A DNA stretch of 63,690 bases, the filler included, from Microthyrium microscopicum (lineage: Eukaryota), in NCBI GenBank assembly GCA_010405405.1. It is 14 parts of 4 records of this genome, joined end to end, with 100 filler letters (N's around TTAATTAATTAA, not from the genome) between each part and the next. Parts side by side here need not be neighbours in the genome. Positions count along the whole stretch, not along the records: positions 29,011 to 30,756 come from MU004230.1; 13 more parts are not named here. One strand, written 5' to 3'. The notes under the pieces are model-generated. The model had not been told where the DNA came from. It saw only the letters and a list, made by a program, of their open reading frames with translations, and did no database searches. The position numbers and the translations under genes were made by a program. Below are positions 4,400 through 60,304 of this stretch, one piece after another (position 1 is the first letter of the stretch; every line of letters starts with the position of its first letter).

Positions 4400-5900
4400 T
4401 AACGCTAAGTATTACTTACACTCCTTCTATAGTCTATAAAAACGAAATTAAAGGAATAGATGTAAGTTAATATTTTATAGGTAAGAGAAAGGGATATTAA
4501 AGAAAATAAAAGTTACAATATTATTTAAAGCAAGATAGAAGTAGAATGGTAGTAGGAGCTTTATAGGCAAACGTACTATAGGCTAATATATTACTAATAT
4601 CTATAACTTTACTCTTATCTAGTTTATTAATTTAGTACTATCTAGAGATTTCTTATTATATAATAGTATAACTATATATATTTTAACTCCTAATAACTTT
4701 CTATATAACTATATCTATACCTACTAATAATTTAGGTAAATATACTAGATATATAAGAGTAGGATTTTAATTACTTTCTTTAACTTCCTATCCTAAGCTT
4801 GTAATTAAAGAATAATTTTTTTGCTATTTATTTATATTTATCTAGTGCTATGCTCTATATTCCTTTTAGGTACTTACTAAATATATCTTTATTATAGATA
4901 AATATCTAACGCATTATCTAGTTAGACTGTTTCTAAAAAATATATTAACTACTAAAGCTATATTGCCTTAATTATTTCTAGAGCGTACCTTCCTTAGCGC
5001 TAGTACTACTACTACGACGTTTAAGTTAAAAGATGTTCGCCTTCTAGTTAAGTTACTATATCTTATAACTAAAATAGACTTTACTACTAAATTGTAACTA
5101 TAGCTCTTTTATTTCGCTGTAAACTCTAGTTATTTAGCTGTCTATTGCTATTAGCATAGGCTAAAGGGTTTTTATTCTCTAACTTATTGCCTTAAGCCTT
5201 ATTATTATAATTAAGCCTTCTCTTAATTATTTAGAAACTACTTTCCCTTTAGATGATATACTTTGTATACTGTAATATATACTTAATAATAATAGTACTT
5301 AAGAGCTAGCAACTATATACTAGCTGCTGTGACCTTTAAAGATTAAATTTACTCTACTCTTAATTTTAATAACTTATAATCTAGGCTCTTAGTATATAGT
5401 CCTAAACTTTCTAATTAACCTCTACTATATATTAATATAGAGTTGACTTTTTATCTTGTTCTTTATATTTACTTAATTCTTTTAATAATATTCTCTTTTA
5501 TTCCTCGTTACTCTAATAGAGAATACGTTTAAGGAATATTAGTCTCCTATTAAGTCTATATTATTATAGTGTTAAAAATTCCTAAGATTAATATTAAGAG
5601 TAGAGTTATATAGGTATAAGCCTATAACCCCTTTTTTTAATTTATAAATAGTATATTCTTAATTTATAGAATATTATATTAATAATTATTATTAAATTTA
5701 ATATTCTAACTAGTATCTTCTTAGAACAATAACCTATACTTAACTTCTAGAAATTATATAAGCTATTAAATTAACTAGTACTAAGTAGTACCTTATAATT
5801 AAGTCTAAACTAGCTATTACTATTATATAAGTAAATACTACTCTCTAAATAACTTTTAAGTAGCTATAGTAGTTTAATACTATAAAATATACCTTCTCTT
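4400..5900 (-). pseudogene. RIP-inactivated ORF with a coiled-coil-like segment, function unknown
   Basis: The minus frame over ~4980-5260 reads SSKGKVVSK*LREGLIIIIRLKAIS*RIKTL*PMLIAIDS*ITRVYSEIKEL*LQF, and all stops are RIP-type. Boundaries are approximate. Confidence 0.35.
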
Positions 5901-6362
5901 AATTTAAGGATTAGCTACTTCTAAATTATATTTAAGAAGTAGTCCTTAAATAAGAGCTAAATTAGAATATATAACCTTTTTACTACCTTATTATTTTTGT
6001 ATCTTTTTAGTCTATAAAAACTAGTACCCTTTTATTTTGACTAAAGCTAACTATTAAATATATCTATAGTAGCTATTCCCTATTATAATATTATTCCTAA
6101 AGACTAATTTATACATGTAAAGAATCTTAGATATTCGTACCTTATAGACTAAACTAAATCGCTCTTAAATAACCTAATATTTACTTACTAATACTACCTA
6201 AGTTCTAAACTCTACTTATAAATTAGACCTTAACTTAAGATTATATTTACTTTTGTATTTACTATGCTATATATAGTTAGCTATCTCTTAAAGGACCCTA
6301 ATACTTAGAATGATTTAGATATTCCTTATAGTAATAAATACTTAACTTTAGAGCTAACTATT

Positions 6363-9300
6363 ATGCTATCTAATAAAGCAACTACCTATATTTAAGGTCC
6401 TAAGAGAGCTTATACTAGATGGGAAGTTAATCCCTTAGTAGTATGTTAAGCATAAGCTTCGTAGGATCTAGCTAGTTAGAGCGTACATCTAGAGATTTAG
6501 TAAGTAATTAGGCTACGTACTCTAAATATCCTATTAGATCGTATTTAGAATTAGTACTTAAATGTTATTAAGGATAATTAGACTATCGAGCTACTAAATA
6601 ATACCTATATTAATATTATAATAATAAATTAGATTTATATAGTACTACGAAATACTAAGGAGACTATTACTTAAATACTATTAGACATTCCTAAGATTGC
6701 TAAGCTATCTTCTAAAAATATACCTTACGAGGAAATTAATTAGTAACCTATAAAGTAATTTAATTATAAGGCTAAGCCTAAAGGCCTCCTAGATTATATT
6801 ATAATAGTTAATTTAGGAGAAGACTTAAATGCGCTAGATCTTAGCGTTTCTAGCTTATCTAAGCTGCCTACTCTCTCTACTTCCTCTAATAGTTCTATAG
6901 ATATTAATAAACAATTATTTGTTGCTATTACTTATTATAATTTATCTTCCTTCTTATCTTCTCCTCCTAGCTTAAATCCTAAAGAAGATTTATTAACTAA
7001 AGTTTTATATAAATTTAATAATAATATAGCTTCACCTTTTAAGTTTACTCTTAGTGCCTTTATATTTTTAGAAGGTATATTACGCGAGGCTTATAAGTCT
7101 ATAGTTAAAGTATTTAAACTTGTAACTCTAGATAATATTACTAACCTTTCTAGCTAGAAAGACATACTCTAGAAACGCTTAATCTAATTATTACTTCTAG
7201 TTAAATAGTAAAAATAAATACTAGAGCTAGACCCTATAGTACTTCCTACTTAGTAATCCTATATAGAAGATATAAAATTCTTTAATATAAAGTATATATT
7301 TTAACTATAGTTATAATTAGAGAGTATAACTAACGTAATATATAAAGGAATAGTAAAACTTGTTAATAAACCTACTAAGCTATAGTATTTAAGAGCTTAG
7401 GGATCTTCTTACTAGTTAACTAGTAGCTACTTTGCTATATATACTAATAATATGCTAATTTTGCTATTAGACTTTATAGGCTTTTTCTATAGCTAAGAGG
7501 AGTGCAAAATCTAATGTATAGATAATTAGAAGTTACTTTATATAAGTTATATTATCTATATTAGTTGTAACTATATAGAAAAAGTAAGGTTACAAGGTAG
7601 ATATCGTCTTATTATAATATTTATTTAGGAAGCTATTAGTAGAGACTAGTTACTAGTATTGTTTCGTGTCTAATTAATATTAGAATTATATATATATAAA
7701 TATAGAGAACTTTTTCTTATTAAAGCCCTAGAAGTTAAGATATAGGAAGATAACATTACTAGCTATATAAAATTAGTGTTTCTAGATTATTATAATTAAG
7801 GTAAACCTAAAAAGCGTTAAGCTAATTAGGAGAGTCTAACTGCGTATAACTATATTATTTATAAAATTATTAACTTAGAGTTAGGTAGTCTTAGAAATCT
7901 TATATTATTAAACCTACTACGTGGCAAACTAGAGATTAAAGAATTTAGTTATAAATATATTATTAGTAACTTTACTAACCTACGAAAGAATATTTACTTA
8001 ATTTCTATAAATATATTTATTAATAGTTTTAGCGTCTAGCGAAATATATATTAAAAGTTAATAGGCTTTTATGCCTAGCTATAGGTCTATAGTAGACGTT
8101 TAGGTAATAAATAGTAAAACTAATTTATTATTATATTAGGACTATTTAGTAGTTACTTTAATAATATATATAATATACTTATTTACTTCTATAATCTTAA
8201 CAAAAGCGTAACTATTATAGTTAATAGTAGGCTAATATTCGTATATGCCTTTTTAATAGCTTATATATTTAACCTAGTTTAATAAAACGAATTAGCTAGC
8301 TGTAAAGTATATAATATAAAACTTAGCTATTATTATTATCTAATTAGCTTAGATAAGCGTAATAATCTTAATTATAATATTATTACTTAAGGATAATACT
8401 ACTACTATATATAAAGAGAATAAGAATAAGCTAATATATTAAGTATAGCTACTAAAAAGACTAAGCGTTTAATAGAACTTAGTCTATAAAAATATAAAAG
8501 CATAGTTATAAAATTATTACTAGCTCTTAACCTTTTTACTATAAGACTACTTAATATTATATATTCTAAGTATTAGGGTATTAGGAAACTAAGTAATATA
8601 ATTTTATAGAGTCTTATTATTAATAAGAAATATACTATAAATATAAATTTAGTATTATAGTAGCTTCTATTTCCTTTAGGCTAGGGCTACTTATAATCTT
8701 TAATTTATTACTTAAATTTATACTAATAATAGGAACTTAGTAGGCTAATAATTATTATCCTAATCTTACTTTACTTATATTTAATAGACTATATAATGAA
8801 TCTATACTTAGTTACTATTATTAAGGATGCCTACTAAAAGGATATTCCTAATTGTACTAATAAGAGAACTATAACTAACATTATAACTACTATCTACTAA
8901 AAGATTACTTAATTTAATCTTATTACTAGAGGCTATAACCTTATAGATAACTAATATAAAAATATAGCAATAAGGATTATTAAGGCTAGGTAAGCTTTAG
9001 CTAAATTCTTTAAGGTTGTAGCTAAGGCTAATTCTTAGGATTCTAAGAATAAGGGGCCTAGTTGGAAATCAAAAGAAAAGTAGCTAGTAAAGCGTAGCTA
9101 GTAAAAGAATACAATCTAGTTATAATCCTTTACTGCCTTATTAGAAGCTAATAATAACTTTAACGATAGTGCTAGCAATTAGGATAATACATCCTCTTAA
9201 TTAAGCGATAGACTATGACAATCTAGTCGTGCAAGGAATGGTTCTAAGCTAAGACGAGCTATATTTATATTGTTATTAGTAGATAATAATAACGAAGAAG

Positions 9301-10497
9301 CTTAATCTTAATTCCTTAGCGAAGATAATAATAAATTATTAGCCGTTAGCTAAGATAATAGTTTCTTTAAGTCCTTAGACTCTATAGAAGACGACGCTAA
9401 TATAGATAATAATATTATTAATAAGATTATTAAAGGTCGTAGTAAGCGTAAAGATAACTTTAAATTTCTATATAAGGCTGCTCTCTAACTAAATATGCAT
9501 ATTAGTCGTTATCTACTAGATACTATAAAGGAATATGCCTTACTATATTTAATTTAAACTTAAGAGGGCAAATAGTTCTATAGGTTAGTATTAATCTTAA
9601 ATTATCTACGCGTAAGAAGTAACGATTTGCTAATATACTTGTAGTATTTTTAAAGACGATATACTACTTATAAACAAGTAAGAACTTATAGCTTAATTAA
9701 TATATTAAGAATGTATATAGCTAATAATTTCCTTTACTATAGCTAGCTCCTTTACCTCTAAGTATCTAGCCTAGAATGAAAGTTTCTAGAATATTATTTG
9801 TATATATCTAAGCCTATTTAATTGTATTAACTTACGAGAATGCTTTAGAGAATCTTAAGAGGAACTAGAGAGTTTCTTAGTTAAGTCTATTGCTAAGGAT
9901 TATAATTATATAGTAGTAAATGTATTGTTTGCTATAAAGTCTAATAATATTAAGAAACGTACTAATCTCCTTCTAAATGTATGAAAGCTAGATATACTAT
10001 TAGATATAAATATCTTTATTATGTTATTTTATAATACTTATTAATAGGACTATAATATAGACTTTACTACCTTTAAGGATTAGTCTATTAAGTAGGTATA
10101 GAGAATTATATTTACTAATAGGTAAGCGTACTATAACTATATGCCTAATTACTTAGATACTCTACTAACTTTTTTATATAGGAATATAGACTATTATTAT
10201 TTTTAGATTAATAACTTTATATAAATCTCTTTAACTAAGTACGCCTAAATTAATAGAATCTTTACCTATTAATGAGCTAATATTACGCGCGCCTTTATTA
10301 TTATTACCTTAGTTAAAGCCTATATAATATAATAGGGTACTAATAAGAACCTAATATTAGATATTATAATATACAAGATATTATATAGATAATAGATTAT
10401 TAGTTTGCTATTACTAAGTAGTAAGCTTATCTAGATAGTACTATAGTTTAAAGAAAGTAAGGTTATATACTTTAAGTATAATATATACTTTATATAA
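6363..10497 (+). pseudogene. RIP-inactivated CMC-superfamily (CACTA/EnSpm/Mirage/Chapaev-like) DDE transposase with two 3' introns
   Basis: The plus frame reads LLRGKLEIKEF...IFINSFSV*RNIY*KLIGFY (de-RIP: HPLRGELEI...FIDGFGVWRNMYRKLMGFY; first D near 8020). It continues AYIFNLV**NELASCKVYNIKLSYYYYL (de-RIP: D..QQNELAGCKAHNAKLGCRHC; second D plus C(2)C), then NIIYSKY*G (de-RIP: D.MHSEY.G), and NMHISRYL...EGK*FYR (H(3)H and catalytic E, ~9495-9585). GT..AG introns lie at ~9584-9644 and ~10122-10181, and the stop TAA is at 10495-10497. The 5' start is uncertain. Confidence 0.75.
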
Positions 10498-11859
10498 ATA
10501 TATTATAGTTGTTTCTTAGATAGGTTACTCTTTATAATAGTTAATATATATATAATATAGGTATAGTATATAGCAAATTAATATATATAGATATACTTTT
10601 ATATTTTACTCCTAACTATATATATCTACCTTACTTAAATATAGTAGTACTTATTAGTAGTACTATAAAAGAATATATAGATACTATAATACTAAGTTAA
10701 TATATAATATTTAATTTATATATAATTTTTAGAGTTATTAACTATTAGTATTATAGCTAGTAAGTATATAGATTACTTAGTAAAAAGAAAGAGTTGCTTT
10801 TAGCTATAGGTAGGGCTATACTATAAAATAATATAAGTATATTAGCAAAAATACTAACCTATACTTCTAATATTATAATAGATAACGTTATAGCGTTTCT
10901 CTAGAAGAGGGGCTATTACTTACTATTAATACTTCTAACCTTATACTCTACTAAACTAACTAATATCTTATATTAATATTGTCTTCTATTTAACTACCTA
11001 ACGCCTCATCTACTTAGTTAATTTTGCAATTAATACTGTTCGCTATACGCTAGGTGAACTAATCTAGTAGTACTTAATAATAATATACTATCTATATTAG
11101 CCTTTAGAGTAACCTATGCCCTTATTTACTGTAAATATAGAGTTTATTTCTAATTGTACTCTATTAACTTTATTTCTATAGACTTTACGATTTTTGCTCT
11201 TATAGTAGTAGATAGTAATAGACTATAGAAGGTTTCCTAGAATAAGGCAATATAAAGAAGTATAATATAAAAGAATTTATAAATAAACAAACTGTATATA
11301 GTATACTAATAACTATAGAATATTTAGTAATTAATATATAGTTAGTATAAGGCGCTATATATACTCTTATAATTTAATACTAATATAGGAATAGCTCCTA
11401 CTTTAATTAAAGATATATACTAACTATAGTAAACGAAAATAATAAACCTAAGCTAATAATAGACTTTCTAATTAGTAGTATAGTTCTATTATATAGCAAG
11501 TTCACTATACAATATTCTATTTTAACTACTTAATTAAATTAATTAAGTATATAATACGAAATAATATTATATATATACCCTTTACTTCTTTACTATAACT
11601 ATAGCTATAGAATACGCTAGCTTAGATACTTATGTATACGTCTATACTACTAGTAATTAAAAGAAGATAAGCTTATAGTTAATAATACGATCTAAATCTA
11701 GCCTTATATATTCTTAAAGCTACTACTAATCTATTATTAATATAGGGTAATATACTCTTATATAGTATAAATTTCCTCTAGTACTAAACTAATATAACTA
11801 ATAGTATGTAATTTCCTTATATTAATTACCTTCTATATCTTTAAATATTCTTATATATA

Positions 11860-12204
11860 GATAGTTTGTAAGGCGCTTATCCTTATCTACTTCTTATACT
11901 TACTTTAATTTATAATCTATTAAGCTAATAGTAGGTAATTCTATTATATTAATTACTGCCTATACCTCTAATTCTTTACGTAGACAAATAGTCTATAAGG
12001 CGCTTTTCCTCCTTTACCTCTTGTACTTACTTTAATTTATAATTCGTTAAGCTAATAGTAGGTAATTCTATTATATTAATTACTATTTACACCTCTAATT
12101 CTTTATGTAGATAGATAGTCTATAAGGTGCTCCTTCTTCTCTACCTCTTGCGCTTACTTTAATTTATATTCTATTAAGCTAATAGTAAGTAATTCTACAT
12201 TATC
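11860..12204. repeat. Tandem repeat, 127-bp unit, ~2.7 copies
   Basis: The AGGCG/AGGTG anchor recurs at 11871, 11998 and 12125. Units differ mainly by transitions. Confidence 0.9.
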
Positions 12205-12249
12205 TTTAATTTCTTATTTCTTATCTACGTATATTAATAATATATATAC

Positions 12250-13600
12250 TAAGTATACTATACTGTTACTTAGCTTAACTATATATATAAAAAGTTGCTC
12301 TGTTTAGCTTATAGTAGATAATTTAATTTACGGCGTAGAATACTATCCTATTATTTAGACGTTGCTTTTACTTATCTATAGATAAGTTAGCTTTTAAACC
12401 TAGCTTATTTTATTTGTCTATTAGCTAACGGGCAATAATCTAGACTTCTTTTATTAATTAGGCTAGCTGCTAATATTATAGTATGTAATATAACTCCTTG
12501 AATTTAACTAAATAAATCTAGTATACTTTAAGTCCTATAAACTAAAATTTCTAGTGGCTAACAATTCGTTCTAGATACTAAGCTATAGGACTAACTACTA
12601 GTAATATGTTTAATAGTAAGACTTCTACTAGCTTATAATATCTAGTAGGTCTTTTTGATTATAAATTAGTATTACTTATAGTAAATAATACGCTATATAT
12701 CTAAAGCCTTATTCCTAGTATTTTATAGTAATTGTAAGGCTATATCTACTTATAGCTATTTTTATTAACTTACTCTTTACTCTTCTAAATCTATAGTACC
12801 TATAGCTAGTAATTTAATATTACTTTATAGTATATTTACTTAATGCCTATACTGATATTAATGCTAGATCTTCTATTACTTAACTAACTTAAGTTATATT
12901 ACCTTATTATAGAATAAGCCTTACTTATAGCATACAATTTAAAATAATAATATAGCACTAATAACTACTTAGTTTTAATAGCTATATTAGATCGTTTCTA
13001 AGGCGCTAAAATATCCTAGCTTATTTAAGTAACTCTATAGATATATTACTAACAGTAAATAATTAGCAATTATTTGCCTAGCTTCTCTTTTAGTTAGTTC
13101 TTCTTTTACTATAAAGCACCTAAAGCTAACTAATACTATAGTATAATAAAAGTAATATATCTATAGAACTACTAGGTTATAGGTACGTTGCAAACTTGCC
13201 TTAATTTCTAGTATACCTTAATTATAATATTTATTACTCTATATATCTAGTTCTAAAAGTGCTAATAATAAGCAATTTATTATTATTATCCTAAGTATAA
13301 CTATACTAGTTAACTGTATACTAAGTAAGTATAATGTCTTTAAGAATTAAAGTTTAATATAGTTTCTTAACTAATAGATAGTACTATAGGTTATTATTAT
13401 ACTCTATATTACTATATACGAATACTAAGAAGTAGGAGGTAAGTATTATTCTTCTATATCTTTAATGTATATTAACTATATATGTATAAAAATTACTATA
13501 ATAGCTTGCTTCTTTTTTAAACTATAGTATTGTTACCCGCTAGTACTAATAGAATATATCTATCCTTTTTAGATCTAGACTTAATAAGTTTTATTCTTAT
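12250..13600 (-). pseudogene. RIP-inactivated ORF of unknown function
   Basis: The minus frame at ~12925-13210 reads LEIKASLQRTYNLVVL*IYYF...VKEELTKREARQIIANYLLLVIYL*SYLNKLGYFSALETI. Boundaries are approximate. Confidence 0.35.
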
Positions 13601-14835
13601 TCCTTAATGATAGATACTTATTTTAATATAACTTATAATACTAAGATTCTATAGACTTATAGACGATACTCTTTCCTAACCTACCTTACTACCTTGCCTA
13701 GCTATATTCTTCCTTTAAGTTTATATTAAATATTTTTATTAGTACGTTTTAAATTTAGGACGTAGTAAGTATATCTAGTAAGAGGTTATATAGTTATATA
13801 GGTAGTACTTTAGTTTATAAGCTTATATAGTTTCTTAAATACGCTATACTATTAAGCTATATAGATTTAGCTACTAGTAAGTAATTTATAATTATATTAT
13901 AATATATTATACTCTTATCTCTAGTAATAGTATATTAATATAACTATCTATAAAATAATGCATATAATAGTATACTAAGTAAGGATTTCTAGCTATATAT
14001 AATATAACTATATATTTAATAGTAGTTATAAGAAATAGTAGTTTATCTAGCATACTATGTCTTCTACTACTTACTAACTATAAAATAGGCTATACTATTT
14101 AGAATTGTAAAATGTATATATTACTAAGTTACGTATATACTACTAATTTATAAGACTTCGCTTCTAATTAAATATGCTACTTAGTTAATTATACTAACTA
14201 TTAATGTAGCCTAATCTAATAGCCTAGAGATTATATAAAAAGTTCTATTAAAAAAAAGCTAAAGTTATATATAATATTATTACTTATATAAGTAAGTACT
14301 ATATAAAGTATATTATCTACAATAATTTTAAGTCTTATTAATTAGAGAATTAATAGTATTATACTAAGATATATATTTACTAGTTAAGCTAACTATTTAG
14401 ATTTATAGAAAAGAGGAATTACTTAAATTTTATATTTAATAGAACCTATAGTTGTATGTAGAACTATTCCTTATTAAATACTATAAACGTCTAGCTACTT
14501 TATTATATTAAACATTCTATCTACTATATCTAGTTATTAACTTAATTATTATATTATATAGATTTAAATGTCTATAATGACCTACTTATATATAGCATTT
14601 ACTAATAAGTTTATTTTATTATTGCTTAAAGTTAAGAGCTTATATAATTATTAATTACCTTTAACTCTAACTATTTTTAGTTAGAAAATTATACTATTAT
14701 ATTTAATACTAAAATTATAGATCTTGATTTTAAATGTCTACAATACGCCTATTATGATAGAATAGATTACAAAATTTAGTATACTAAAGATAGACTAGTA
14801 ATAGTATATTTAATTACCTCTAGGGCGCGCTATAG

Positions 14836-15061
14836 TAATCCTATAGATGTAGGTTTACCATTCCTCTTTAGGATTTCAAATTTAAGACTTACGTGAATTA
14901 AGTAAGCGCCGGTTCGCTTGCCGTGTTGTATTAAATGTGTAGTATTCTAAAGCATTCAATTACTAAAGTGCCTTTCATAGTAGATGATTAGTGAAATAAT
15001 CTCGATTTTCAAAATTTGGAAAGTCCCAAAGAGGAATGGTGAACCTGCATCTGCAGGATTA
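14836..15061. mobile_element. MITE-like element: ~50-bp imperfect inverted repeats flanking a ~130-bp spacer
   Basis: The left arm at 14836-14883 is TAATCCTATAGATGTAGGTTTACCATTCCTCTTTAGGATTTCAAATTT. The reverse complement of 15012-15061 is TAATCCTGCAGATGCAGGTTCACCATTCCTCTTTGGGACTTTCCAAATTT. Confidence 0.7.
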
Positions 15062-15177
15062 GCTACGGTACTAGCGAAAGAGATGTTGTTGCCAAAACCC
15101 GCCTACTAAATCTAAAGGGGTTAGCGTTACCAAGGATCTGCGGAGCCGACTCGGCCCGAGCCTAGTTCTACTTCTCC

Positions 15178-15200
15178 GTATGTATGTATGTATGTATGTA
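15178..15200 (+). repeat. (GTAT)n microsatellite, ~5.75 units
   Basis: GTATGTATGTATGTATGTATGTA seen directly. Confidence 0.9.
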
Positions 15201-15617
15201 GATTTTCAGTCAATTGGTCTCCCTCGTGAGTCATATGTACATAGATGTAAAGGTAGATTCTCGAATACCAGCTGAATATCTACTCTGATAAGCCCCCACA
15301 GTCGGTCCTCATCACAGATAGTACAGGTTGCTTATTAAAAACGTCTATTGCAGGTACGGTACATAAAGTGAAGCTTGAGAAGAACCCTTAATTGGCCGCT
15401 AACTGGCTAACAGCCTACATACAAGGCAGCCAACAGCGGTTACAGCCAACAGCCAACAGCCACATTTTGATGCAGCACTGCAGCAGCCAACAAGCAACAG
15501 CCACCAACTAAAACCATGGTCAGGTCTTTAGCGAGACCAACAACGTACTACCTACTAAGGTACTCTCAAAGAATCACGGCCGCCCAGATCATCTTATTGC
15601 CCACGCTACCAAGCGCC

Positions 15618-15624
15618 TATAAAA
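15618..15624 (+). promoter_or_regulatory. Putative TATA box of the F-box gene
   Basis: TATAAAA lies ~65-70 bp upstream of the ATG at 15687. Confidence 0.45.
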
Positions 15625-15686
15625 GTCAACGCCGGCCCTTTTTGCATTGCTAACCCGACACAAACCCAGCAATCACTACTCGAAGC

Positions 15687-17159
15687 ATGAACGCTTCCAG
15701 ACTCTCTCGCGACCATATTGACTGGTGCGTTGATCCACAAGGAAAATTGAAGTCTCCATTCTATTTCCACGTCTCACGAAGACCCAATAGCGCCTCTACC
15801 AGCCAGACGTTCCCCTTTCTTCTTTTGCCCGATGAAATACAGCTTGAAGTCTATCGACACTGCGACGCCTCTACTCTCTATCAGCTGATGAAGACATGCA
15901 GACACATGAGACCAGAGGCTACCGAATTGTTCTGGGCAGACACGGAAACCTGGTATGTGGGAAACTTCAATGCTTTGTATTGGGCAGGCGGAAGCCCAGG
16001 TCCTTCGTTGCATTGTCCGGACTTCGCTCAACACGTTCAATAGGTCGCCTTTGAGGCGACGACCATAGGTTTGAGCGGCCAGTTTACCGAAAGCCCGGTT
16101 GAGTGGTCCTGGAGCAGCGACGGGCGACCGGAGGTGCCACACAGAGTTTGGCTCTCAAAAGGAGAGGCATTCAATGACTTCTGGAAACATTTGCAACGCA
16201 ATTTCCCATCGGCTAAACGAGTCCTGTTTTATCTGGAACAAAGGGGGTCCCTATTAGTTTGCCTCATGAGACCCTGCGCGGAAACATGTCCCTCCAATAT
16301 CAAAATTCAGGTTGCTACCGTGTTTGACTATCCTTTCCATGGAGGAAATTGTCATCACGCTCCTCATATTGAGTTGGTCGGAAGGGATATACGCCAATTC
16401 AACAATGTCATAGACAAACCGATCCTCTCCATGCAGTAGCGAATGGACCAATGGACTCTCGAGTCACGGCGGCAAGTGAAGCTTCTCATGATGCCATTCA
16501 AGAAGGTCTCTGGTCTAGCCGGGCTGGTTCAAGCAAAGCAGTACTGGGAGCAATGTCTCGAGATTGAGCAAAGTACTATACGCTGGCTTCGATTGCAAAG
16601 CAGGGCGACTCAGCTTTTCCCCGATGGAGAGAAGGACAGTACTTCAGACGGCCAAGCGGTTATGTGCCTGAAACCAGATTGTGAAATAACCCCGCGCAGT
16701 GGAATACACTTTTCCACTGACGACAAGTTCAAATTCATGCTCTACCTTTGGAAGCAATGTCATGATTCAGAAACACTACCTCTCAATCCGATCGACCGAA
16801 CTACGAAACCACCCCAGGAGAATGATGGCGATCTCCTTCTTACCGAGCTGGCGGAGGAGATATCTGCCGCTATGAACGAACGAAAGTCGAATTTTGACGC
16901 CCAAATTAAAGCAGCATTCTGTGCTGGCGATGAGATATTCACTGATAGTCTTGAGAAATTCTGCAACCAGGTCGAGAACGATCCCTTCTGCCAATTTGCC
17001 CAAATACCGCCGACGAGCATCCCTTGGCTCCATTGGGATATGCTCAAATTGATCCCAAAGCCACCTCACCCCCGCAGATGTCCTGTCCTAGACGACATGC
17101 ATCGTTTCTTTCTTGCGGCCAAAGCGGCCAAAGGCAATGCACCAGGTACTCAACTGTGA
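15687..17159 (+). pseudogene. F-box domain protein (~490 codons) disrupted by two in-frame TAG stops
   Basis: Track ORFs 15687-16043, 16071-16439 and 16443-17159 are all in one frame, separated only by TAG at 16041 and 16437. There is an N-terminal F-box-like motif, FPFLLLPDEIQLEVYRHCDASTLYQLMKTCRHMRPEATELFW. Confidence 0.8.
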
Positions 17160-17909
17160 CGATGATTCCATATCGGAAAGCGAGAACTGGGTTATGCTGC
17201 GCACCATACAATGCTTGCGTCTTGTTCACACTCGTCAATATTCGTCACGGGAGCTGGCTTTAAAGGACTTCAGTACAACACGATTGCTCGAGCCGATTAA
17301 GGCCTTCCAATTTCAGCAGAGCCATGGAATCAATTCAAAATGTCTGCTCTTGAAGGCACCATACCTAGTCCAACTGGACTAATTCGTGAAAATTTTTGCC
17401 CATAAAAATGCTTGCACCAACTCTATCTGAAGACGTTCAACCTGCAAAAATCGATCATTCACAAATCTAATGCATGCTAGTAGCCGTCACTTCTAGATTT
17501 ATGGCCTCGCCGACTAACCGGATTATCATACAAGCACTTCATTTGGCTGAATGCTGAAATACATTGGAGGAGGAAGTTTTGAACATTCAGAGTGAGGCCT
17601 ACGGTAGAATCATGCACGATGTAAGAACCTGGTCAGCAATCACCTCAAAAGCTTTCACCTACATTCAACAACATTCTTGATATAGTAAGGAACTCATGGC
17701 TTTAACATCTCGTCACGCCATCAATATGCTTGATTTTTATCGATCTATTGAATGCAACAGATTTCCCTCATCGAATATATTCCAATGTTTTTCCTGTCAC
17801 TAGAGACATGCAATCAATATTTTCCTCACTTTTTGCAACTCGCATCCAAACTCCTGGAGTATACTAGCGTTTTTCACTAAAGGTTTGCTCGTCAACACTG
17901 GCTTTCAGG

Positions 17910-20053
17910 ATGCGGCTCTCTTTACTACCTACACTTTGGGCGTCAGCACTATTGGTACAATCTGGATCTGCCAGTACATCTTTTTCAGGGGTTATCAATG
18001 GCATGCCTGTCAATCCCTACTATCCATTCTGTGCTATGACATGCTTAAGGTCCATATCTAGCTTACTGCTAACATGTTCCTCAATGGATGCTGGTACTGT
18101 TGGAATGATGCAAATGCTTACAACTTCAGCTTGTTGGGCAGAGAATACCCTATATCTTACAACTCTAGCTTAGTGTATGCATGACAAATGTACCTAGGAA
18201 AATATCCCAGCCTCAAAACTTGAATGATTTTGAAAAGCTGAGGCCACTGGCCAATCCAACGTTAGCCAAGGAGGTGTTCTGCCTAACTGGTCCTTCTCTC
18301 AATCTCTTGCAAATATCAGTTCCAATCCCCCAACAACAGTACTTGATCCGAAAGCAATATGGTTAAACTCCACGTCTCTTATTAATCCAACCGTCTATCT
18401 ATCGCAATGGAACGTCTTGACAAGTGTGCAGCGTGAAACGGCACAAGAAAATGTATTTGGGTAAGTTCTTCTGATCCATTCAGTTCAACCAGTATCGCAC
18501 TACTTGTCGTTGAATTTGGGATCCCTATAGCTTTCACTTGGTTTGGATATCTTCCGGTCTTCTCTAGCATTTTCAGAAACCTCAAACCATATCTGGGTTG
18601 GCCAAGTCTTACCGGAACCTACTCTTCGCGCCCACTTCCTTTTTCCATTGGAAACGCACCTACACGCGGTCAATCCCTCTATATTGTTTTGTTCCTCATT
18701 CTCAGCATTGTCTTGACTGCGGTCAGATACCAATCCCGTCAACCGAATGCGTGGTACTCAAAGAAATGGGATGAAATCATGGCTTATGTTATGTACCGAA
18801 CAGGAGCGCTTGCGTACATTTTTGCTCCTCTTATTTGGCTCTTTGCTGGAAGAAACAACATTCTTCTCTGGACAACAAACTGGTCTCATTCAACTTTTCT
18901 CGTACTACATCGATGGGTTGCTCGAATTTTCACTCTCCAGGCAATTGTTCACTCTCTTGTTGCTGTGGTGTTGTATCAACATGAAGGTACATATTCCTCG
19001 GAGGTCACAAAACCATACTGGATTCGGGGTATTGTAGCAACCATCTTGGCCGTCTTTCTTACCTTTGGAAGTGGACTTTTTGTCCGGAAATTCTCATACG
19101 AGTTCTTTTTGATTCAGCATATTATCTTATCCGTCATTATAATCGTTGCCATGTGGTATCACGCCATGGATTTATACGCATTTCTTGGCGGATATCAGGA
19201 TTGGTTAATTGCCATCTCTGCCGTTTGGATGTTTGACCGCCTAGGACGTCTTCTACGAATTACCATGGTTGGTGCACAAAGAGCTATAGTCACATCACTT
19301 GGCGACGAGTATGTTCGCGTTGATATTCCCAACATTCGATGGGGCGCGGAACCTGGCAAGCATGTTTATGTTTATTTTCCTACACTTCACCCACTTCGAC
19401 CATGGGAAAATCATCCTTTTTCCATTTTACAAACAGCGATGGTACAGCCAATGCAACCAAATATCGCTTCGACTACTCACAGTCACAGCTCGGTGGAACG
19501 ATTAGATGACCACCACGACGTGGAGAAGAGTCGCTCGGTGAAGCCGACTACCAAATCACTTGTGCAAAACCGTCGTGAGATGGGTCTCACACTTTACATT
19601 CGCAAGGAGGCTGGCGCAACCAAGAACCTTGCCTCGCATAACAGCCTACTTACACTTATTGAGGGCCCATATCCAAACAATTCTACTCGTGAAGTCCTTC
19701 GAGCTGATCGCTTGCTGCTCATAAGTGGCGGAATTGGCATCACAGGTCTATTGCCCTATGTCAATTATCACTGGAATGTCAAGTTAGCTTGGAGTGTCAG
19801 ACCAGCGGCCCAGGTCTTGGTCACAGATTTGAGCGATGCATTGACTGCAGTCGCAGACAAGGAGATCAGAGTGGGAAGTCGATTCAATGTTCAGCAACTC
19901 TTGCAGCAGGAGATTAGCTCCGGTTGGAAAAGAGTTGGTGTGGTTGTCTGTGGGCCTGCTGGTCTTTGCGACGATGTCAGAGCGGCTGTTTCGGAAGCCG
20001 CTAAGCATAGCAGGACTGAGTTTGAACTTGAAGTGGAGGCTTATGCGTGGTAA
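17910..20053 (+). pseudogene. FRE-family ferric/metal reductase (signal peptide, transmembrane heme domain, FAD- and NADPH-binding domains; ~703 codons; exons 17910-18460 and 18493-20053) with four premature stops in exon 1
   Basis: The signal peptide is MRLSLLPTLWASALLV. Heme histidines are in LHRWVARIFTLQAIVHS and QH..L...WYH. The FAD motif is WENHPFS, followed by IEGPY, the NADPH motif LISGGIGIT, VVVCGPAGLCDDVR and a C-terminal EVEAYAW. In-frame stops are TAG 18171, TAG 18195, TGA 18225 and TGA 18231. The intron GTAAGT..CAG at 18461-18492 restores the frame (FG/IALLVVEFGIP). Confidence 0.88.
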
Positions 20054-28910: not shown

Positions 28911-29473
28911 NNNNNNNNNNNNNNNNNNNNNNNNNNNNNNNNNNNNNNNNNNNNTTAATTAATTAANNNNNNNNNNNNNNNNNNNNNNNNNNNNNNNNNN
29001 NNNNNNNNNNAGTTTCTATAAAGCTTAATAAGTTATTATAATCTATATATATTAAATATTATAATCTATATATTAGAATTATAATTATAAATTAGCTTAT
29101 TTAGATTTTAAAATATATTAAATATAATAATAAATTTATTTTATAAATAATTAATAATATTTTATTTTATATTATTAGTTATATATAATATAATAAACTA
29201 ATATTAATTAATATATAAATATTTAATAATATAATAAATTATAATATAGTTTTAAATATACTTAAATACTTAATAATATTTAATATATATTAAGTATTAA
29301 TTAGCTTATTATAACTATTATATAATCTTAATAATTTAATTTAATATAATTAATATTTTTTTATTATAGTTTAACTTTTATATAATAATAAATAAATAAA
29401 ATTACTTATTAATAAATTAAATAATTAAACTTAATTTCCTTATTATATTTTAGTTTTTATTATTATTATTATT

Positions 29474-29567
29474 AGGAGAGTAGTACAGTGGTAGTACTTA
29501 CGATCTCGCGGTAGGCCCTACTTACTTAAGAATCCGTAGGGCACAGGTTCGATTCCCGTCTCCCCCG
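29474..29567 (+). pseudogene. tRNA-like head (RIP-mutated; ~20-nt intron-like insert in the anticodon loop; isotype unresolved)
   Basis: The acceptor stem is AGGAGAG/CTCCCCC and the D arm is GTAC-AGTGGTA-GTAC (A box TAGTACAGTGG). The anticodon stem is TACG/CGTA and the T arm is ACAGG-TTCGATT-CCCGT (B box GGTTCGATTCC). The stem mismatches are G>A changes. Confidence 0.75.
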
Positions 29568-30661
29568 CTACCCTAAAAAGGCAATCGTTACTTGCTTTTA
29601 AAGCTATAATTACCCCTTCTTAGGGAAGGTTATTCTTCCCTTTTTAGTAAGTGTAGAGGACGAGCTATAGCTCTTTTTAATACGTTATAAAGGTACAAAT
29701 TTTTGTATTACGTAACTACTATATATAGCTATAAGATTATCCTTATTAAAGCCTTACTACTAATAATAGACTAGCGTTAAAATTACATAATTAGAAACTA
29801 GCTACTACGTAAAGCTACACTAAAATAAGCTACAATATTGCTAAAGCGCAGCAAATTCAGCATGCTAAAGCTAATTCTTTTACGGCTCTTAGCAATTAGA
29901 TTAGATAATCGGCCTTAGCTTAGTAAGCTTAAAATCCTACCGCGGGAGGCTAGGATCAAACTAAATAATACGGCAGAAAATTATAAGATCTAGGGACACT
30001 ACGGCTTAGTAAGTACAGTGCCTACAAGTTAGTATAATAGCGCTATAGGATAAGTTAGTAGACTTAGGGGAGGTAACCTAGAACATACTAGGCTAAAGGA
30101 CCCTAGATAATGGCTTAAAAGCAAAGCATAGCGTAGACGGATAGCTTTTAGCAGACTATTAGCGCTGCCTTAGACTTAGTATTATAGCAAGAATAGAGGG
30201 ATCTAACATAATAATAAGGAGGGAATTAGCCCTACGGGGTAATAATATTGGCAACTTTAGGAACTTAAAGTAGTAGACTAATTAGAAGAATATACTATCG
30301 TTATAGAAAATACGCCTAGAGAAGTACTAATAGGCTAAATACTCTCTAGAATTTAGCTCCCTAACTCGCTAAAGCTTTTGCGGCTTGGGGGGCTAATAGG
30401 GCTTAGCAGGGTATAATATTAGCCTTAGTATAGATTAGTACACAGAATATAATAGCAAGGTTTTCCCTTATATAGTTAGCGCCTTAGTTTACTAAATATA
30501 TAGGGGTTAGCTAAAGCTAGACTAGGCCTTAGGCCTAGAGTAAGCTAGCTTAGCTAGATTTAGGTAGATTAGCTAATTAGATAAGGGTTTTTACCTACTT
30601 ATTAAGAGTAGCGTCTGCATAGCCTATTAGCGTAGCTAAAAGACAATAAATAAGATTTATA

Positions 30662-30756
<95 letters not shown>
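30662..30756 (+). repeat. (TTA)n microsatellite / SINE tail
   Basis: A perfect trinucleotide run ending at an N gap. Confidence 0.95.
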
Positions 30757-41350: not shown

Positions 41351-42713
41351 TAGGCTTATATTAAACTTTTACTCCTACTTTCCTTAAATAGTATATTATC
41401 TATATCTATATCTTATTCTTTTTCTTTATTTATTTAAAAAGAAATACCTTATATTTTTATATAATAACTATCTTCTTATTATAAGCTTTACTATTTATAG
41501 CTAAGAAGAAAAAATTTTTATTATACTCTAACTAAACTATAATATAGTATATATTATATAAATAGCTATAGATTTAGTACTTTATAAATATTTTAATATA
41601 TATTAAAATACTATGCCTATACTTTTTCTTTTATTATTAGTACTAGTACTAATAGCTTAACTACTTTTAGAAGGACGCTAAGGCTTTACTTAAGAATTTA
41701 GTTTTTATATACTTATATAGTAATAATTTACTTATCTACTTCTAGAACTATATCTTACTAAGAAGAGTCTAGTAATATAGTATTTATAAGTTAGCTAGTA
41801 GTTTATTTAGTAGAATTAAGGTTTTACTAATAGATAGTATAAAAGTCTAGGTAAACTTTATACTTAAGTTTAGTTTAATTAGTTTCTAAGGAAGATTTTA
41901 CGTTTAAGTTTAGAGTATTATTATTATTCTCTTTTAGCTTAGGAGTTAATTTAGCTAGTATAATAGCTTTAAGAAGTTAAGGAGTAGTCTAGAATTCTAA
42001 GTATTTATAATTTATATTTTTTAGATAAGAATATACTTTAAATAAGGGTACTAAGAAAGTTAAGTATAGTTTTTAGTTATCTTAAAAACTATAGTATATA
42101 GTTTATAGTAGAATTAAATAAAAGATATAATAATATTATAATAAGTAGTAGTAAAGCTATTAACTAACTAAGTAAGTTATTATAAATAAAGAAAGTTATT
42201 AGAAACTAAAATAATAAAGATATATAATAAAGGTAAATAGCTACTATTTTAATTATTACTATAAATAGTAGATAATTATTAAGTAATATTTAGATCTAGT
42301 AACTAAATAAGCTCTCTATAGAAGCTTAAGGTAAAGTATAAAAAAGATATATATATATTAGAAATAAAATAAAGAAGCAAAATAAGTTTAGATTATTATA
42401 AGTACTAAAAAAAAAGGATTTAAAATTAATAGCCTATTATTTTATTTAAAGAATTATAAATTAAAAGCTATTAAAAAGAATAAATAATTTTACTTCTTAT
42501 ATATATACTATTCTATATAAATATATATTCCTAAAGTTCTTAAGTTAATTTATTTTATTATATTCTATATTATACTAACTATTATATTTAAGTCTATAAC
42601 TAATATTAACGAANNNNNNNNNNNNNNNNNNNNNNNNNNNNNNNNNNNNNNNNNNNNTTAATTAATTAANNNNNNNNNNNNNNNNNNNNNNNNNNNNNNN
42701 NNNNNNNNNNNNN

Positions 42714-45258
42714 TTATAGTTATTATTATTATTCTAAATTATATTCTTAATATAATTAGTAAGATAGTAGATTATCTAAACGTATTAACTAAGTTAAAAG
42801 TTAGTTTATTTTATTACTAGTATAGTATATTCTTAATATAACTTTTCTATAATACTAAAATTAGTTCTATTTATAGTACTAAATATATAAATAGATAGTA
42901 TAAAATAAATTAGATTATAGAACTTAAGGAAATTAAGCCCTTTAAACTTAGCTTAAGGAATCTTATACTTATATATTACTATTTTAGTATATTCTATAAT
43001 TTATAAATAGACTTATATATATTTAAGTATATTCTTATTATATAACTTATAGTTAGAAAGTATAATAATATCTATTAAAGTTTTAATAAATTTTATTATA
43101 ATTAGGTTTTTTAAAATTAAGAGTAAAGCTAAAGCAACTATAAGTTACTTTAAAAGTATTTATAATTCTAGGCTAGTCTTTTATTAAACGTTATAGTAGC
43201 CTTAGGCTATTCTTAGAAAGCCTAAATAAATAGGATACTATAGAAACCTATAGTTAATTATAAACTTTACTTTTATACTAAATATAGACTTCTTCTTTTT
43301 CCTTTTTTACTTAGTTTTTAATATATTACTATCTTTCCTCTTAATCTTTAGTATTTTATAAGTATAAGTTTTTTATATAGCTTTATTATTCTTTATTTTA
43401 ACTACTAGTACTATAAATATTACTAATACTCTCTTTTCTAAAATAATTTAAGCTATCTAGTCTATTACTTACTTAACTAGTTTATTTAAAAAGAATATAT
43501 ATAGTAAATTAAAAGTAATTATTATATAAATATTTAATAAAAGATAATTTTAAGTAAAATTATAAATTTTATAAATATAGTCTTTACCTTTAGTATTATT
43601 AATAGTAATAAGCTACTTAGTATACTTTTTTTTCTAATTAGCGTAGTAAAGTACTTTCTACTTTAATATATTTTCTTATAAAGTTATATAAGTCTAATAA
43701 GCTTATTTACTAGTAAAGTCTTATTAATATAGTTATAGTATTAAGTAAATAAAATAGTAATATTTAGACTAGATACTTATAATTATAATAAGCTTTTTAT
43801 AATCTATACTTATATAAGTAAGAATTAAAAGATACTTTTAAAACTAGCTATTAGTAGTTACTATAATATAACTACTCTTAAAGACTATTCTAAGTTCTAT
43901 ATTTTATTAGTAAATAGCTTTATAATACTTAAATACGTAGTATTAAACCTTTAAATATAATATCTATAATATTATAAAATATTTTAAGTTTATTATTAAT
44001 ATCTATACCTTTTAGCTTAGGAAGTATTATAATAAAGAGAAATCTTAGTCTTCTTATAGCTCTTCTAATACTTCTTAATAAATTAAAAATAGTTATATAG
44101 TAAGCCTATATATAGTTATTACTACGTTATTTAGATATTATAGTCTTATTTAATCCTTAATAGATAGAGATAAGTATAATACCTAAATTAACCTTATTTT
44201 ATAATTCTTACTACCTTTCTACTAATTAAGTATTAGTATAGATATACTTACTATCTTTATTCTTTTATATTATAGGCTTAAAGTAAAGGTCTTTAGTAAA
44301 AAGCTTATAAGAGATAAAGAATTTAATAACTTTTAAAATACTTTAAAAGTATACTTTAACTTTATTACTTAGAAGATTTTTAATACCTTTTATTTTATTA
44401 TATAGTAGCTCCTTAAGTATTACTTTCTACTAGCTAGGTATAAAGCCTTTAAAGTTATTAATATTTTCTATTAGTAATTTATAATTCTTTACTTTTTAAC
44501 TAAGTAAGTTACGTATTTTACTCTTAAAGGCTATTCCTTAAAAGAACTTATTTACTTTATTCTTTAATATACTACTAGAAATTACCTAACTAGTAAACTC
44601 TAGTTCTTCTTCTAGTTAACTCTATAGCTTTACTCCTCTATAGAGCTTTTCTTTCTTTAAATAATAATATTAGTACTCTATTTTAATAGTATCTTAAAGT
44701 AATAGCTTATGCTTATTAATTTAGTTATAGCTTTTATTAGTTTTATAGGCTAGTATAGGTATATTTACTAAATATCTTAAATTTTATTATAAGTATATAA
44801 TAACTTTATTAACTATATATTATATACTACTCTTAGACTTTTAAGACTTATTAGCCTTATCTATCTTATTTTATAAATTATATTTATACTATATTAGAGT
44901 AGTAACTTTTTCTATAGCTTTAAGGATAGCTAAAGATAAAAGTATAGTAAAAGGTATAATTATCTTATTTTTTATTATAGGTATTTTAGACGTAGTATAG
45001 TTATAACTAGAATAAGTAATAAATCTTATACTAATAAAGAAACTATTTATAGAAAGTTTTCTTACTAGAGTTTTTATTACTAGTATTAATCTTTATATTT
45101 AATTAAAGGGCCTTTAGAGGTAATTATAAAGATTTATAGTAAAAAAGAACTATATACTATTTAAAAAACTTAATATACTTATATTTAAAAAGATTAGTCT
45201 ATAAGAATAGTAATATAACTTATTTAGATTAAATATATACTAAGAGATTAAAATATAT
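42714..45258 (-). pseudogene. RIP-inactivated Plavaka-type transposase
   Basis: The minus frame at ~44000-44600 reads VYF*SILKVIKFFISYKLFTKDLYFKP...KYIYTN...ER**EL*NK...IILISIY*GLNKT...I*AYYITIFNLLRSIRRA...FIIILPK. De-RIP this is F..P...RIYT....WW.LQ...T.IPI...SDKT.....AW..YMTI.NL...RR....LP, the Plavaka core. The SDKT codons are at 44142-44153. Confidence 0.7.
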
Positions 45259-52286: not shown

Positions 52287-54387
52287 AACTTATATATAAT
52301 TTAGCCTTATAAGATTATTATATAGTAGTGCTAACTATCTTAGCATTAATCTTATATTATTTTCTTACTTTTTTTATATTCTTTATAGTATAGTATTCTA
52401 TAATAGTAAGCTAGCTCCTTAGATATTTAAGTATAGATATATTTTATAAGATAATTAGTATTTATAAAAAATACTTATATATTTAGTATTAATAATTCTA
52501 CTAATTAGTAAGCTAAATAGTATATATAATAGTTTAGTATATAAGCTAAGGAATATAGGCCTACTAAAACGTAACTTTACCTTATATAATATATATAGAG
52601 AAGTTTAAAATACTTTATATTAAAGTCTTAAAGCTTATATAATTATATTAAAAGCTAAATATTACTTTTAGAAATATAAATTAGTAGTAGAGAAGTATTA
52701 AAAGACGTCGTAGCTAAAGGGATAGAAGTCTTTAGTAACTTAGACTTACTANNNNNNNNNNNNNNNNNNNNNNNNNNNNNNNNNNNNNNNNNNNNTTAAT
52801 TAATTAANNNNNNNNNNNNNNNNNNNNNNNNNNNNNNNNNNNNNNNNNNNNCTTACTTATAAAGTAATTTAGTAAGAAACTACTACTACTAAGCTTTACT
52901 AAACTTTACTATAGTTGTAAATTCTTAACTATACTTTTATCCTTTTAAGGAAGGAGCCTTATAGTATTTACTTTAATTAAAACCCTTATATAGTATTATT
53001 TTATTTATTAAAGCTATTTTAAGAGAGATATTATAAGTATAGTTCTCTTAAAGAATATTCTCTTACTAAATTTAGTAAGCTTCCTTATGAACTAATATCT
53101 TTACTTATAATATATTCCTATAACTATACTAAAATCTATATATAGCTTAAAGAATATTTCCTTACTTAGTAAGCTTCCTTACGAACTAATATCTTTTATC
53201 TATAATACGTCTTTATAACTATACTAAAATCTATATATAGTTTAAAAAATATTTCTTTACTTAGTAAGCTTCTCTACGAACTAATATCTTTACTTATAAT
53301 ACGTTCTTATAACTATACTAAAATCTATATATAGCTTAAAGAATATTTCCTTACTTAGTAAGCTTCTCTATAAACTAATATCTTTGCTTATAATACGTCT
53401 TTATAACTATATTAAAATCTATATATAGCTTAAAGAATATTTCCTTACTTAATAAGCTTCTTTGTAAATTAATATCTTTATCTATAATATATCTCTATAA
53501 CTATACTAAAATCTATATATAGCTTAAAGAATATTTTCTTACTTAGTAAGCTTTTCTATAAACTAATATCTTTATCTATAATATATCCTTATAACTATAC
53601 TAAAATCTACGTATAGCTTAGAGAATATTCCCTTACTAAATCTAGTAAGCTTTCCTATAAATTAATATCTTTACTTATAATATATCTCTATAACTATACT
53701 AAAATCTATATATAGCTTACTTAAAGGAAAATATTATAAGTATAGTCCTTTTAAAGAATATTCTTATACTAAATTTAGTAAGCTTCCTTATAAATTAATA
53801 TCTTTACTTATAATATATACCTATAACTATACTAAAATCTACGTATAGCTTGCCTTAGAAGAAATATTATAAGTAAGTAGTCCTTATAAAAAATATTCCT
53901 TTACTAAATTTAGTAAGCTTTCTTACGAATTAATATCTTTGCTTAAAATATAACTTTATAACTATACTAAAACCTATATATAGCTTACTAGACCCTTCTA
54001 AGTAAGCTATAGTATTATATAAAGGCGCTGCCTTACTAAATATTAGTAACCCTATTATAAACAAAGATAATTTCTACTACTAAAATAGAAGTTTAGAAGT
54101 TTAGAAGTTCTTAAAGTAGTATAAGTTAGTAGTAATATACTAACGTAGTAGGTAATATTATTAAGAGTAGTATACTTCTTTAGGCTTACTATTAGATTAA
54201 ATACTAATCTAATCTAGATATTAATTATTTAGTTATACTTATAACATTTATATTGTAAGCTATAGTAGTAAGTTAAGCTAATTTATAAATCTCTATATAT
54301 TTACTTTATTAAATATTAGATTTACTTATCTTACTTAGGACTTTTGTACCTACTTCTATTAAATTCTATCTATTCTAAATTAATAGT
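52287..54387 (+). repeat. Internal, uncapped, heavily RIP-mutated copy of the subtelomeric repeat at 60300-62280; includes a ~94-bp VNTR at ~53040-53990
   Basis: It is colinear with 60300-62278 and differs almost only by C>T/G>A changes. It is split by a linker at 52752-52851. Confidence 0.93.
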
Positions 54388-58419: not shown

Positions 58420-58512
58420 CCCTAACCCTAACCCTAACCCTAACCCTAACCCTAACCCTAACCCTAACCCTAACCCTAACCCTAACCCTAACCCTAACCC
58501 TAACCCTAACCC
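58420..58512 (+). repeat. Telomeric repeat (CCCTAA)n, ~15.5 units
   Basis: A perfect array starting at a contig edge, in left-chromosome-end orientation. Confidence 0.98.
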
Positions 58513-60209: not shown

Positions 60210-60304
60210 AACCCTAACCCTAACCCTAACCCTAACCCTAACCCTAACCCTAACCCTAACCCTAACCCTAACCCTAACCCTAACCCTAACCCTAACCCTA
60301 ACCC
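60210..60304 (+). repeat. Telomeric repeat (CCCTAA)n, ~16 units
   Basis: A perfect array after a 10-N gap. Confidence 0.98.

Follow-up and report, generated by a model that had tools for sequence, protein, structure and literature searches.

To our knowledge, SINEs and comparable tRNA-headed elements are rarely described in fungi. The fungal SINEs enumerated in PMC5063351 range from 472 to 900 bp in length. They include MgSINE (472 bp, about 100 copies) and mgsr1 of Magnaporthe (800 bp, about 40 copies), Foxy of Fusarium oxysporum (about 160 copies), and the powdery mildew elements Egr1 (700 bp) and egh1/EGH24 (900 bp) (PMC5063351). An example of a fungal SINE with a proposed partner element is AfuSINE2-1a of Aspergillus fumigatus, whose 3′ end is common to I-1_AF, a LINE-like element of the Tad clade (PMC5063351). 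A different type of element is Helenus (TRIMp3), whose LTR contains tRNA-like sequence in which the A and B boxes are conserved; it is described from Pucciniales and Agaricomycetes (PMC10886601).

In this work, we describe a locus of Microthyrium microscopicum found in a stretch of 63,690 nt, which is referred to here as the window. Positions 29474–30657, together with a simple-repeat tail, probably represent one RIP-mutated, dead copy of a dispersed family of non-autonomous non-LTR retroposons, about 1.19 kb in length and resembling a long SINE. The element is located in a contig of 1,746 bp (29011–30756), and its parts, with the flanking repeat, are as follows.

29457–29473, no strand assigned: upstream (TTA)n run, possibly the target site or one side of a target duplication, the same repeat being found after the element.
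29474–29567, plus strand: tRNA-like head, Glu(CTC) by anticodon (Rfam, ARAGORN with introns, depth jump).
29481–29491, plus strand: A-box-like motif TAGTACAGTGG (motif match with one departure from the consensus).
29509–29533, plus strand: intron-like insert of 25 nt between tRNA positions 37 and 38 (ARAGORN with introns, Rfam alignment).
29546–29556, plus strand: B box GGTTCGATTCC (exact match to the consensus GGTTCGANTCC).
29568–30602, plus strand: body of 1,035 nt, RIP-mutated and with no detectable coding capacity (RIP indices, stop counts, Pfam, contig depth).
30603–30657, plus strand: conserved 3′ module with AATAAA (peak summed depth, second sequence context).
30658–30756, plus strand: simple-repeat tail, TATATA and then (TTA)31 (TRF, regular expression), cut at the linker from 30757.

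Up to the end of the conserved 3′ module, the unit measures about 1,184 nt, which exceeds the usual SINE length (under about 700 bp). Like Mg-SINE, Foxy and AfuSINE2, it combines a tRNA-related head that carries A and B boxes with an apparently non-coding body and with a tail that is A/T-rich or consists of simple repeats; those elements are present in tens to about 160 copies (PMC5063351). Mg-SINE measures 472 bp and the others a few hundred bp, whereas the present element reaches 1.19 kb, has 25 nt inserted at the intron site of its tRNA-like head, and is RIP-mutated in most copies. For AfuSINE2-1a, a partner LINE (I-1_AF) is proposed, while none is identified for the present element. The usual SINE length is likewise well exceeded by Egr1, egh1/EGH24 and mgsr1, non-autonomous retroposons of fungi that occur in about 40–50 copies (PMC5063351). 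In this comparison, which concerns length and copy number, the present element is longer (1.19 kb) and comes from a Dothideomycete with active RIP.

The similarity to Helenus is of a different kind. In both cases, a non-autonomous retroelement spreads an A/B-box tRNA-like sequence in a fungal genome, and for Helenus this is noted to inflate tRNA predictions (PMC10886601). Helenus is characterized by a pair of LTRs, neither exceeding 323 bp, together with a PBS, a PPT and duplications of 5 bp (PMC10886601). In contrast, the present element lacks a second direct copy, has tails that vary between copies, is 1.19 kb long and resides in an ascomycete host. As regards the features that define Helenus, no second copy is present in the contig or the window, the tails vary, and no PBS follows the unit.

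Taken by its overall behavior, the element is more like a long tRNA-headed SINE than like anything else we considered, and we favor this assignment with some confidence. Membership in this class is provisional: the window copy departs from it in length and in predicted Pol III transcribability, and the ends, the target duplications and the partner LINE are putative. The preliminary description of this DNA had proposed a long fungal SINE-like family with a structured core that perhaps targets (TTA)n; the family itself is borne out by its multiple copies, the linkage of head and body, and the variable tails, while the structured core and the targeting are not. Among the papers listed by our literature search, none describes this family or a SINE whose head retains a tRNA intron. 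Among the listed papers naming Microthyrium microscopicum, none concerns its repeats by title, and in the accessible text of two Dothideomycete transposable element surveys the word "SINE" appears only in general background.

The head is the best-defined part of the element. The Rfam model RF00005 (tRNA) matches positions 29474–29567 on the plus strand with 34.6 bits against a gathering score of 29 (E = 4.1e-05 for a 1.5-kb stretch), and this is the sole Rfam match in the whole 63.7-kb window (E = 0.0017). ARAGORN called no tRNA under its default setting; with the intron option, it identified a tRNA-Glu(CTC) carrying a 25-nt insert (29509–29533) directly after position 37, which we take to be the canonical intron site of nuclear tRNAs. 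The Rfam alignment is in agreement with this, as the anticodon region comprises 32 nt versus 9 in the model. The B box GGTTCGATTCC is unique in the window, with 0.02 occurrences expected by chance. The A-box-like motif TAGTACAGTGG agrees with the consensus TRGCNNAGTGG at 10 of 11 positions, and its single departure, T for the expected C, is a RIP-type change; this motif has 2 matches in the window versus 0.49 expected and is weak alone.

The cloverleaf of the window copy is not intact. A·C mismatches are found in three stem pairs (1–72, 4–69 and 51–63, in the acceptor and T stems), each of which is one G-to-A step away from a G–C pair. The head is not a functional nuclear tRNA gene, given this cloverleaf and the location in a RIP-mutated repeat copy. 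The complete cloverleaf with A and B boxes and an insert of about 20 nt at the intron site, as read earlier, can be retained with regard to the tRNA likeness, the boxes and the insert, whose length is 25 nt, and must be corrected with regard to the three mismatched pairs.

The evidence that this unit is repeated comes from public contigs. Contigs from four of six listed runs (X1, X2, X5 and X6) were aligned to positions 29011–30664 (1,654 bases) at a likeness of at least 80%. X1 and X2 derive from one sample and may be the assembly's own source; X5 bears another organism label and belongs to another study, and X6, which may be an RNA run, to a third study. The stretch is matched by 251 contigs of X1 and 267 of X2. 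In the likeness classes 99 and above, 95–99, 90–95 and under 90%, these are distributed as 59, 48, 68 and 76 contigs for X1, and as 58, 59, 69 and 81 for X2. In X5, 13 contigs match, all of them 80–95% alike and with RIP-type differences.

Summed contig depth along the stretch is not a copy number and serves here only to distinguish many copies from one. It is 77–97.5 (X1) and 304–328 (X2) in the flank bins 29291–29458, where the X2 value is that of one exact contig (29077–29680) spanning the 5′ junction. It then increases to 965 and 8,119, respectively, in the head bin 29515–29570, lies at 947–3,608 and 5,731–18,206 over the body, and reaches 9,003–12,169 and 41,992–43,628 at 30579–30664. Relative to the flank, this corresponds to about 10–60-fold depth at the head and about 100–140-fold over the last ~60 nt, again in the sense of many versus one.

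The head and the body are linked in these contigs. Record 1 of X1 crosses from one into the other (29516–29682, then 29759–29897), as do record 14 of X5 (29487–29649) and record 21 of X6 (29487–29685 and 29827–29901). Inside the tRNA, at position 29522, 8 contigs of X1 and 8 of X2 carry C instead of the T of the window. The family is multi-copy, and the head, body and tail are colinear in many copies; its dispersal is inferred from the differing flanks. The preliminary description had left room for a single-copy sequence and for a head and body that do not occur together elsewhere. Public contigs show a multi-copy family instead, and contigs of three separate studies cross the head–body junction. 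Related copies in X5 and a hardly mutated version in X6 indicate that the family is not private to one assembly and that at least one copy escaped RIP.

Within the window, the element is present once: a blastn search with word size 9 matched only the TTA tail elsewhere, and a RIP-tolerant scan in purine/pyrimidine space (at least 52 of 60 matches) found no second copy. In metagenome contigs, the 3′ module was searched for with two IUPAC patterns that tolerate RIP, and neither had a match.

Divergence between the copies follows the RIP pattern. About 85% of the variable places are transitions, at 289 of 341 for X1 and 283 of 326 for X2. The window copy has a G+C content of 36%, and its body shows a TpA/ApT index of 2.08 and a (CpA+TpG)/(ApC+GpT) index of 0.42, as compared with 0.75 and 1.31 in a G+C-richer island of the same window. 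The differences of X6 from the window copy run almost throughout in the un-mutating direction, with 31 A>G and 32 T>C changes against 4 C>T and 2 G>A. G+C-rich loose ends occur in X6, and also in some X2 contigs. Thus, X6 holds a GC-rich, hardly mutated version of the element.

The island just mentioned occupies about 15–25 kb of the window (41–49% G+C), is surrounded by AT-rich blocks (G+C 8–28%), and shows no RIP signature (indices 0.75 and 1.31) between the RIP blocks. It contains an open reading frame (18689–20053) for a ferric reductase, which is 100% identical over its length to a 672-amino-acid NCBI protein labelled Microthyrium microscopicum (Dothideomycete).

The letters of X6, applied by hand to the window copy, bring the head closer to a tRNA gene. 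A G at 29545 (A>G) restores a pair of the T stem, and an A at 29567 (G>A) gives an A discriminator. A C at 29537 (T>C) fits a G–C pair in the anticodon stem, the pairing partner being absent from the listed X6 differences. With a G at 29528 (A>G), the insert gains GAGA, which is complementary to the UCUC of the anticodon loop; anticodon–intron pairing is known from nuclear pre-tRNAs. The less mutated the copy, the closer its head thus comes to a genuine tRNA gene with an intron, and this argues for a real tRNA ancestry of both the head and its insert.

At the opposite end, the last ~55 nt show the highest summed depth of the element, 2.5–7 times that of the body. Judging by the loose ends of contigs, the conserved sequence stops at about 30657–30659, and AATAAA is located at 30645–30650, 8 nt before the conserved end. 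This signal and the ~32 TTA units noted earlier are confirmed: TRF counts 33 units at 30657–30756, and a regular expression finds 31 exact units from 30664. The tract runs into a linker at 30757 (44 N, TTAATTAATTAA, 44 N), and its length is a lower bound. The stem-loop read earlier in the tail is indeed the minimum free energy fold, yet its z-score is −0.84, and 46 of 200 shuffled sequences fold as well.

The sequence behind the conserved end differs between copies. In the hardly mutated X6 copy, the tail is a short CAA repeat followed by unrelated ordinary flank, and the record continues for about 1.4 kb; in at least three X2 contigs, ATA/TAA-type repeats follow the conserved end. Differing simple-repeat tails after a fixed end are a mark of non-LTR retroposition, and tails that vary in this way do not fit LTR ends. 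The suggestion that the element targets (TTA)n tracts was drawn from the window copy and is not supported, as the X6 copy ends in a CAA repeat and ordinary flank.

The 3′ module is also found in a second context, inside an 8,574-nt contig of X6 (record 26, 2343–2393), where a different sequence precedes it. Among the listed contigs, five of X1 and two of X5 diverge before 30603/30605. Their consensus resembles the window's own sequence, and they may be variants of the same family rather than a second family. No reverse-transcriptase gene was found beside the 3′ module, and no LINE with the same tail was seen. The 3′ ends of I- and Tad-clade LINEs carry short tandem trinucleotide repeats instead of poly(A), as exemplified by the (TAA)n of the Drosophila I factor. 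The trinucleotide-repeat tails are alike, a likeness to be used as a lead only, and the LINE-like character attributed to the tail of the present element is a reasonable lead and not a result.

Two other identities were considered for the locus. A minus-strand element, with the upstream (TTA)6 as its (TAA)n tail, was set aside, as the conserved and most abundant end is the high-coordinate one. An rDNA spacer was likewise set aside, since the window contains no Rfam match to rRNA and since flanks and tails vary from copy to copy.

Where the repeated unit begins is known to an interval. Between about 29459 and 29487, the summed depth changes from that of a single contig to that of many. Positions 29443–29486 were masked in the contig alignment, which is why all alignments begin at 29487 and why the end of the unit is placed only within about 29459–29487, an interval that contains the first tRNA base, 29474. 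The head probably forms the start of the unit, with a tolerance of about 13 nt, while X6 record 21 carries 975 nt upstream of it, which could be flank, part of a longer transcript or, in other copies, part of a longer unit. As noted earlier, the head directly follows a trinucleotide run, (TTA)6 at 29457–29474. This run, with (TTA)31 downstream, is the only duplication-like sequence at the locus; being low in complexity, and cut by the linker on the downstream side, the pair is weak as evidence of a target duplication. The flank preceding the element, at 6% G+C, is a repeat in its own right, with a summed depth at 29123–29290 of 2–6 times that of neighboring bins. A 487-nt tandem repeat is present in the preceding contig (27865–28814).

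The body has no recognizable coding capacity. Each reading frame contains 33–53 stops, and the longest open stretch in the element is 46 codons. A Pfam search of the six frames, with stops read as X, gave 0 matches (no reverse transcriptase, RNase H, endonuclease or transposase), a low-power test. Four neighboring RIP-degraded contigs, searched in 24 frames, also gave 0 matches and no LINE remnant, so the negative result on the element says little. The "hairpin-rich", structured core described earlier was not seen on folding the window copy: four body pieces of ~260 nt gave z-scores of −0.15, +0.21, +1.56 and −1.98 versus 100 dinucleotide shuffles each.

The body does contain many T-runs. On the sense strand, nine runs of at least four T occur in the element, four of them T5; the runs begin 29 nt behind the tRNA, and the T5 runs 74 nt behind it. 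The earlier caveat that T-runs at ~29596 and ~29641 would stop Pol III is therefore stronger than originally worded, since both are among these nine. None of the X6 differences in 29487–29685 lies in a T-run, among the 18 listed of 24. As the T-runs are expected to stop the polymerase, the window copy is predicted not to be transcribable as a whole by Pol III. If the T-runs are original, Pol III would seldom complete an RNA of 1.2 kb, and the element would have to rely on Pol II or on read-through.

A course of events consistent with these observations can be proposed. The family would have arisen from an intron-containing tRNA gene, Glu(CUC) by its anticodon, with the internal A and B boxes acting as a promoter that travels with the element. 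An RNA starting at or near the tRNA +1 position, presumably made by Pol III, would serve as the template for DNA synthesis at a nicked target. The reverse transcriptase would be supplied by an autonomous LINE and may recognize the conserved ~55-nt 3′ module and the trinucleotide-repeat tail. Copying in this manner would give each insertion its own tail and flanks. Once the family had become multi-copy, RIP would have introduced C-to-T and G-to-A changes into the majority of copies; in the window copy, it would have broken three tRNA stem pairs and lowered the G+C content to 36%.

A more far-reaching version of this proposal is that the family is still active. It would be a Pol III-headed family of ~1.2 kb, born from an unspliced read-through pre-tRNA, with a real intron showing anticodon pairing in unmutated copies, with at least one hardly mutated master surviving RIP, and with mobility provided by a Tad/I-type LINE that uses trinucleotide-repeat tails. 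We put this forward tentatively and hold it to be doubtful in its full extent; if true, both the way in which the family arose and its size would be unusual among SINEs.

Alternatively, the 1.19 kb may belong to a larger or composite element with an internal tRNA-like sequence, so that the window copy simply begins at the tRNA. Such an element could be a chimeric retrocopy, in which template switching joined a tRNA to the 3′ part of a LINE and which was then amplified and transcribed by Pol II from outside, or a non-autonomous LTR element of the Helenus type with a tRNA-like sequence in its LTR. We consider this unlikely, and it keeps an appreciable share of our belief because of the T-runs and the 975 nt upstream of the head in X6 record 21. 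The T5 runs from 74 nt behind the tRNA argue against a full-length Pol III RNA, and an AATAAA near the end, together with a length atypical for a SINE, would also suit a composite element. Helenus demonstrates that tRNA-like sequences can reside in fungal LTRs (PMC10886601); its LTRs, however, do not exceed 323 bp, and they are described from Pucciniales and Agaricomycetes, not from Ascomycota (PMC10886601). The depth of the window copy drops to the level of a single contig exactly upstream of the head, which would be a coincidence if the 5′ truncation were random. Variable tails are unlike LTR ends, no second direct copy exists in the contig or the window, and the six frames contain 0 reverse transcriptase, RNase H or endonuclease domains, although this last test has low power.

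Far less probable, in our view, is a dispersed duplication at the DNA level, in which the tRNA gene and its downstream region were multiplied by segmental duplication or by a DNA transposon and then mutated by RIP, with no reverse transcription involved. The retained intron is what a copy made from DNA would show, duplication alone suffices for RIP, and no target duplication was read. Nevertheless, such a process is difficult to reconcile with tens of variant contigs rather than a few, with a conserved 3′ end followed by different simple-repeat tails and flanks, and with AATAAA before the tail; there are also no evident terminal inverted repeats, and the low-power Pfam test revealed no transposase domain.

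Chance neighbors, that is, an ordinary tRNA pseudogene beside an unrelated repeat fragment, would suit the single copy in the window and the frequent occurrence of tRNA genes beside transposon remnants, but this explanation is largely refuted by the public contigs and retains hardly any probability, since the same head–body junction recurs in three studies (X1 record 1, X5 record 14, X6 record 21), 8 contigs per run in X1 and X2 cover position 29522 inside the head, and the head carries RIP-type mismatches although a tRNA of 94 nt is by itself too short to attract RIP.

If the reading of the locus as a long tRNA-headed retroposon is confirmed, an element of this type would be added from a little-studied Dothideomycete. 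The insert at the tRNA intron site would then show that a SINE head can be derived from the transcript of an unspliced tRNA gene and not from a mature tRNA. In practice, tRNA predictions are inflated by copies of this kind. The family also provides a natural gradation between hardly mutated copies and those heavily altered by RIP, which could be used to study the extent of RIP and the escape of master copies.

Some features of the surrounding sequence are worth recording. From 25937 on, the window is a chain of AT-rich contigs of 1–4.6 kb, with a few other N runs. Thirteen identical 100-nt linkers (44 N, TTAATTAATTAA, 44 N), each with a stop in all six frames, are distributed between 28911 and 62628; because of these joins, order across the linkers says little about true adjacency. 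Telomere-type repeats are found at 58420–58512, (CCCTAA)15.5, and at 60210–60304, (AACCCT)15.8. Each run opens a contig directly after a gap, and the two share one orientation, so that two chromosome-end pieces are placed within the scaffold. The same 94/133-nt tandem-repeat unit occurs in two contigs (53047–53989 and 61121–61866); it may be a subtelomeric satellite, one of its occurrences lying ~0.8 kb from the start of a telomere-repeat contig.
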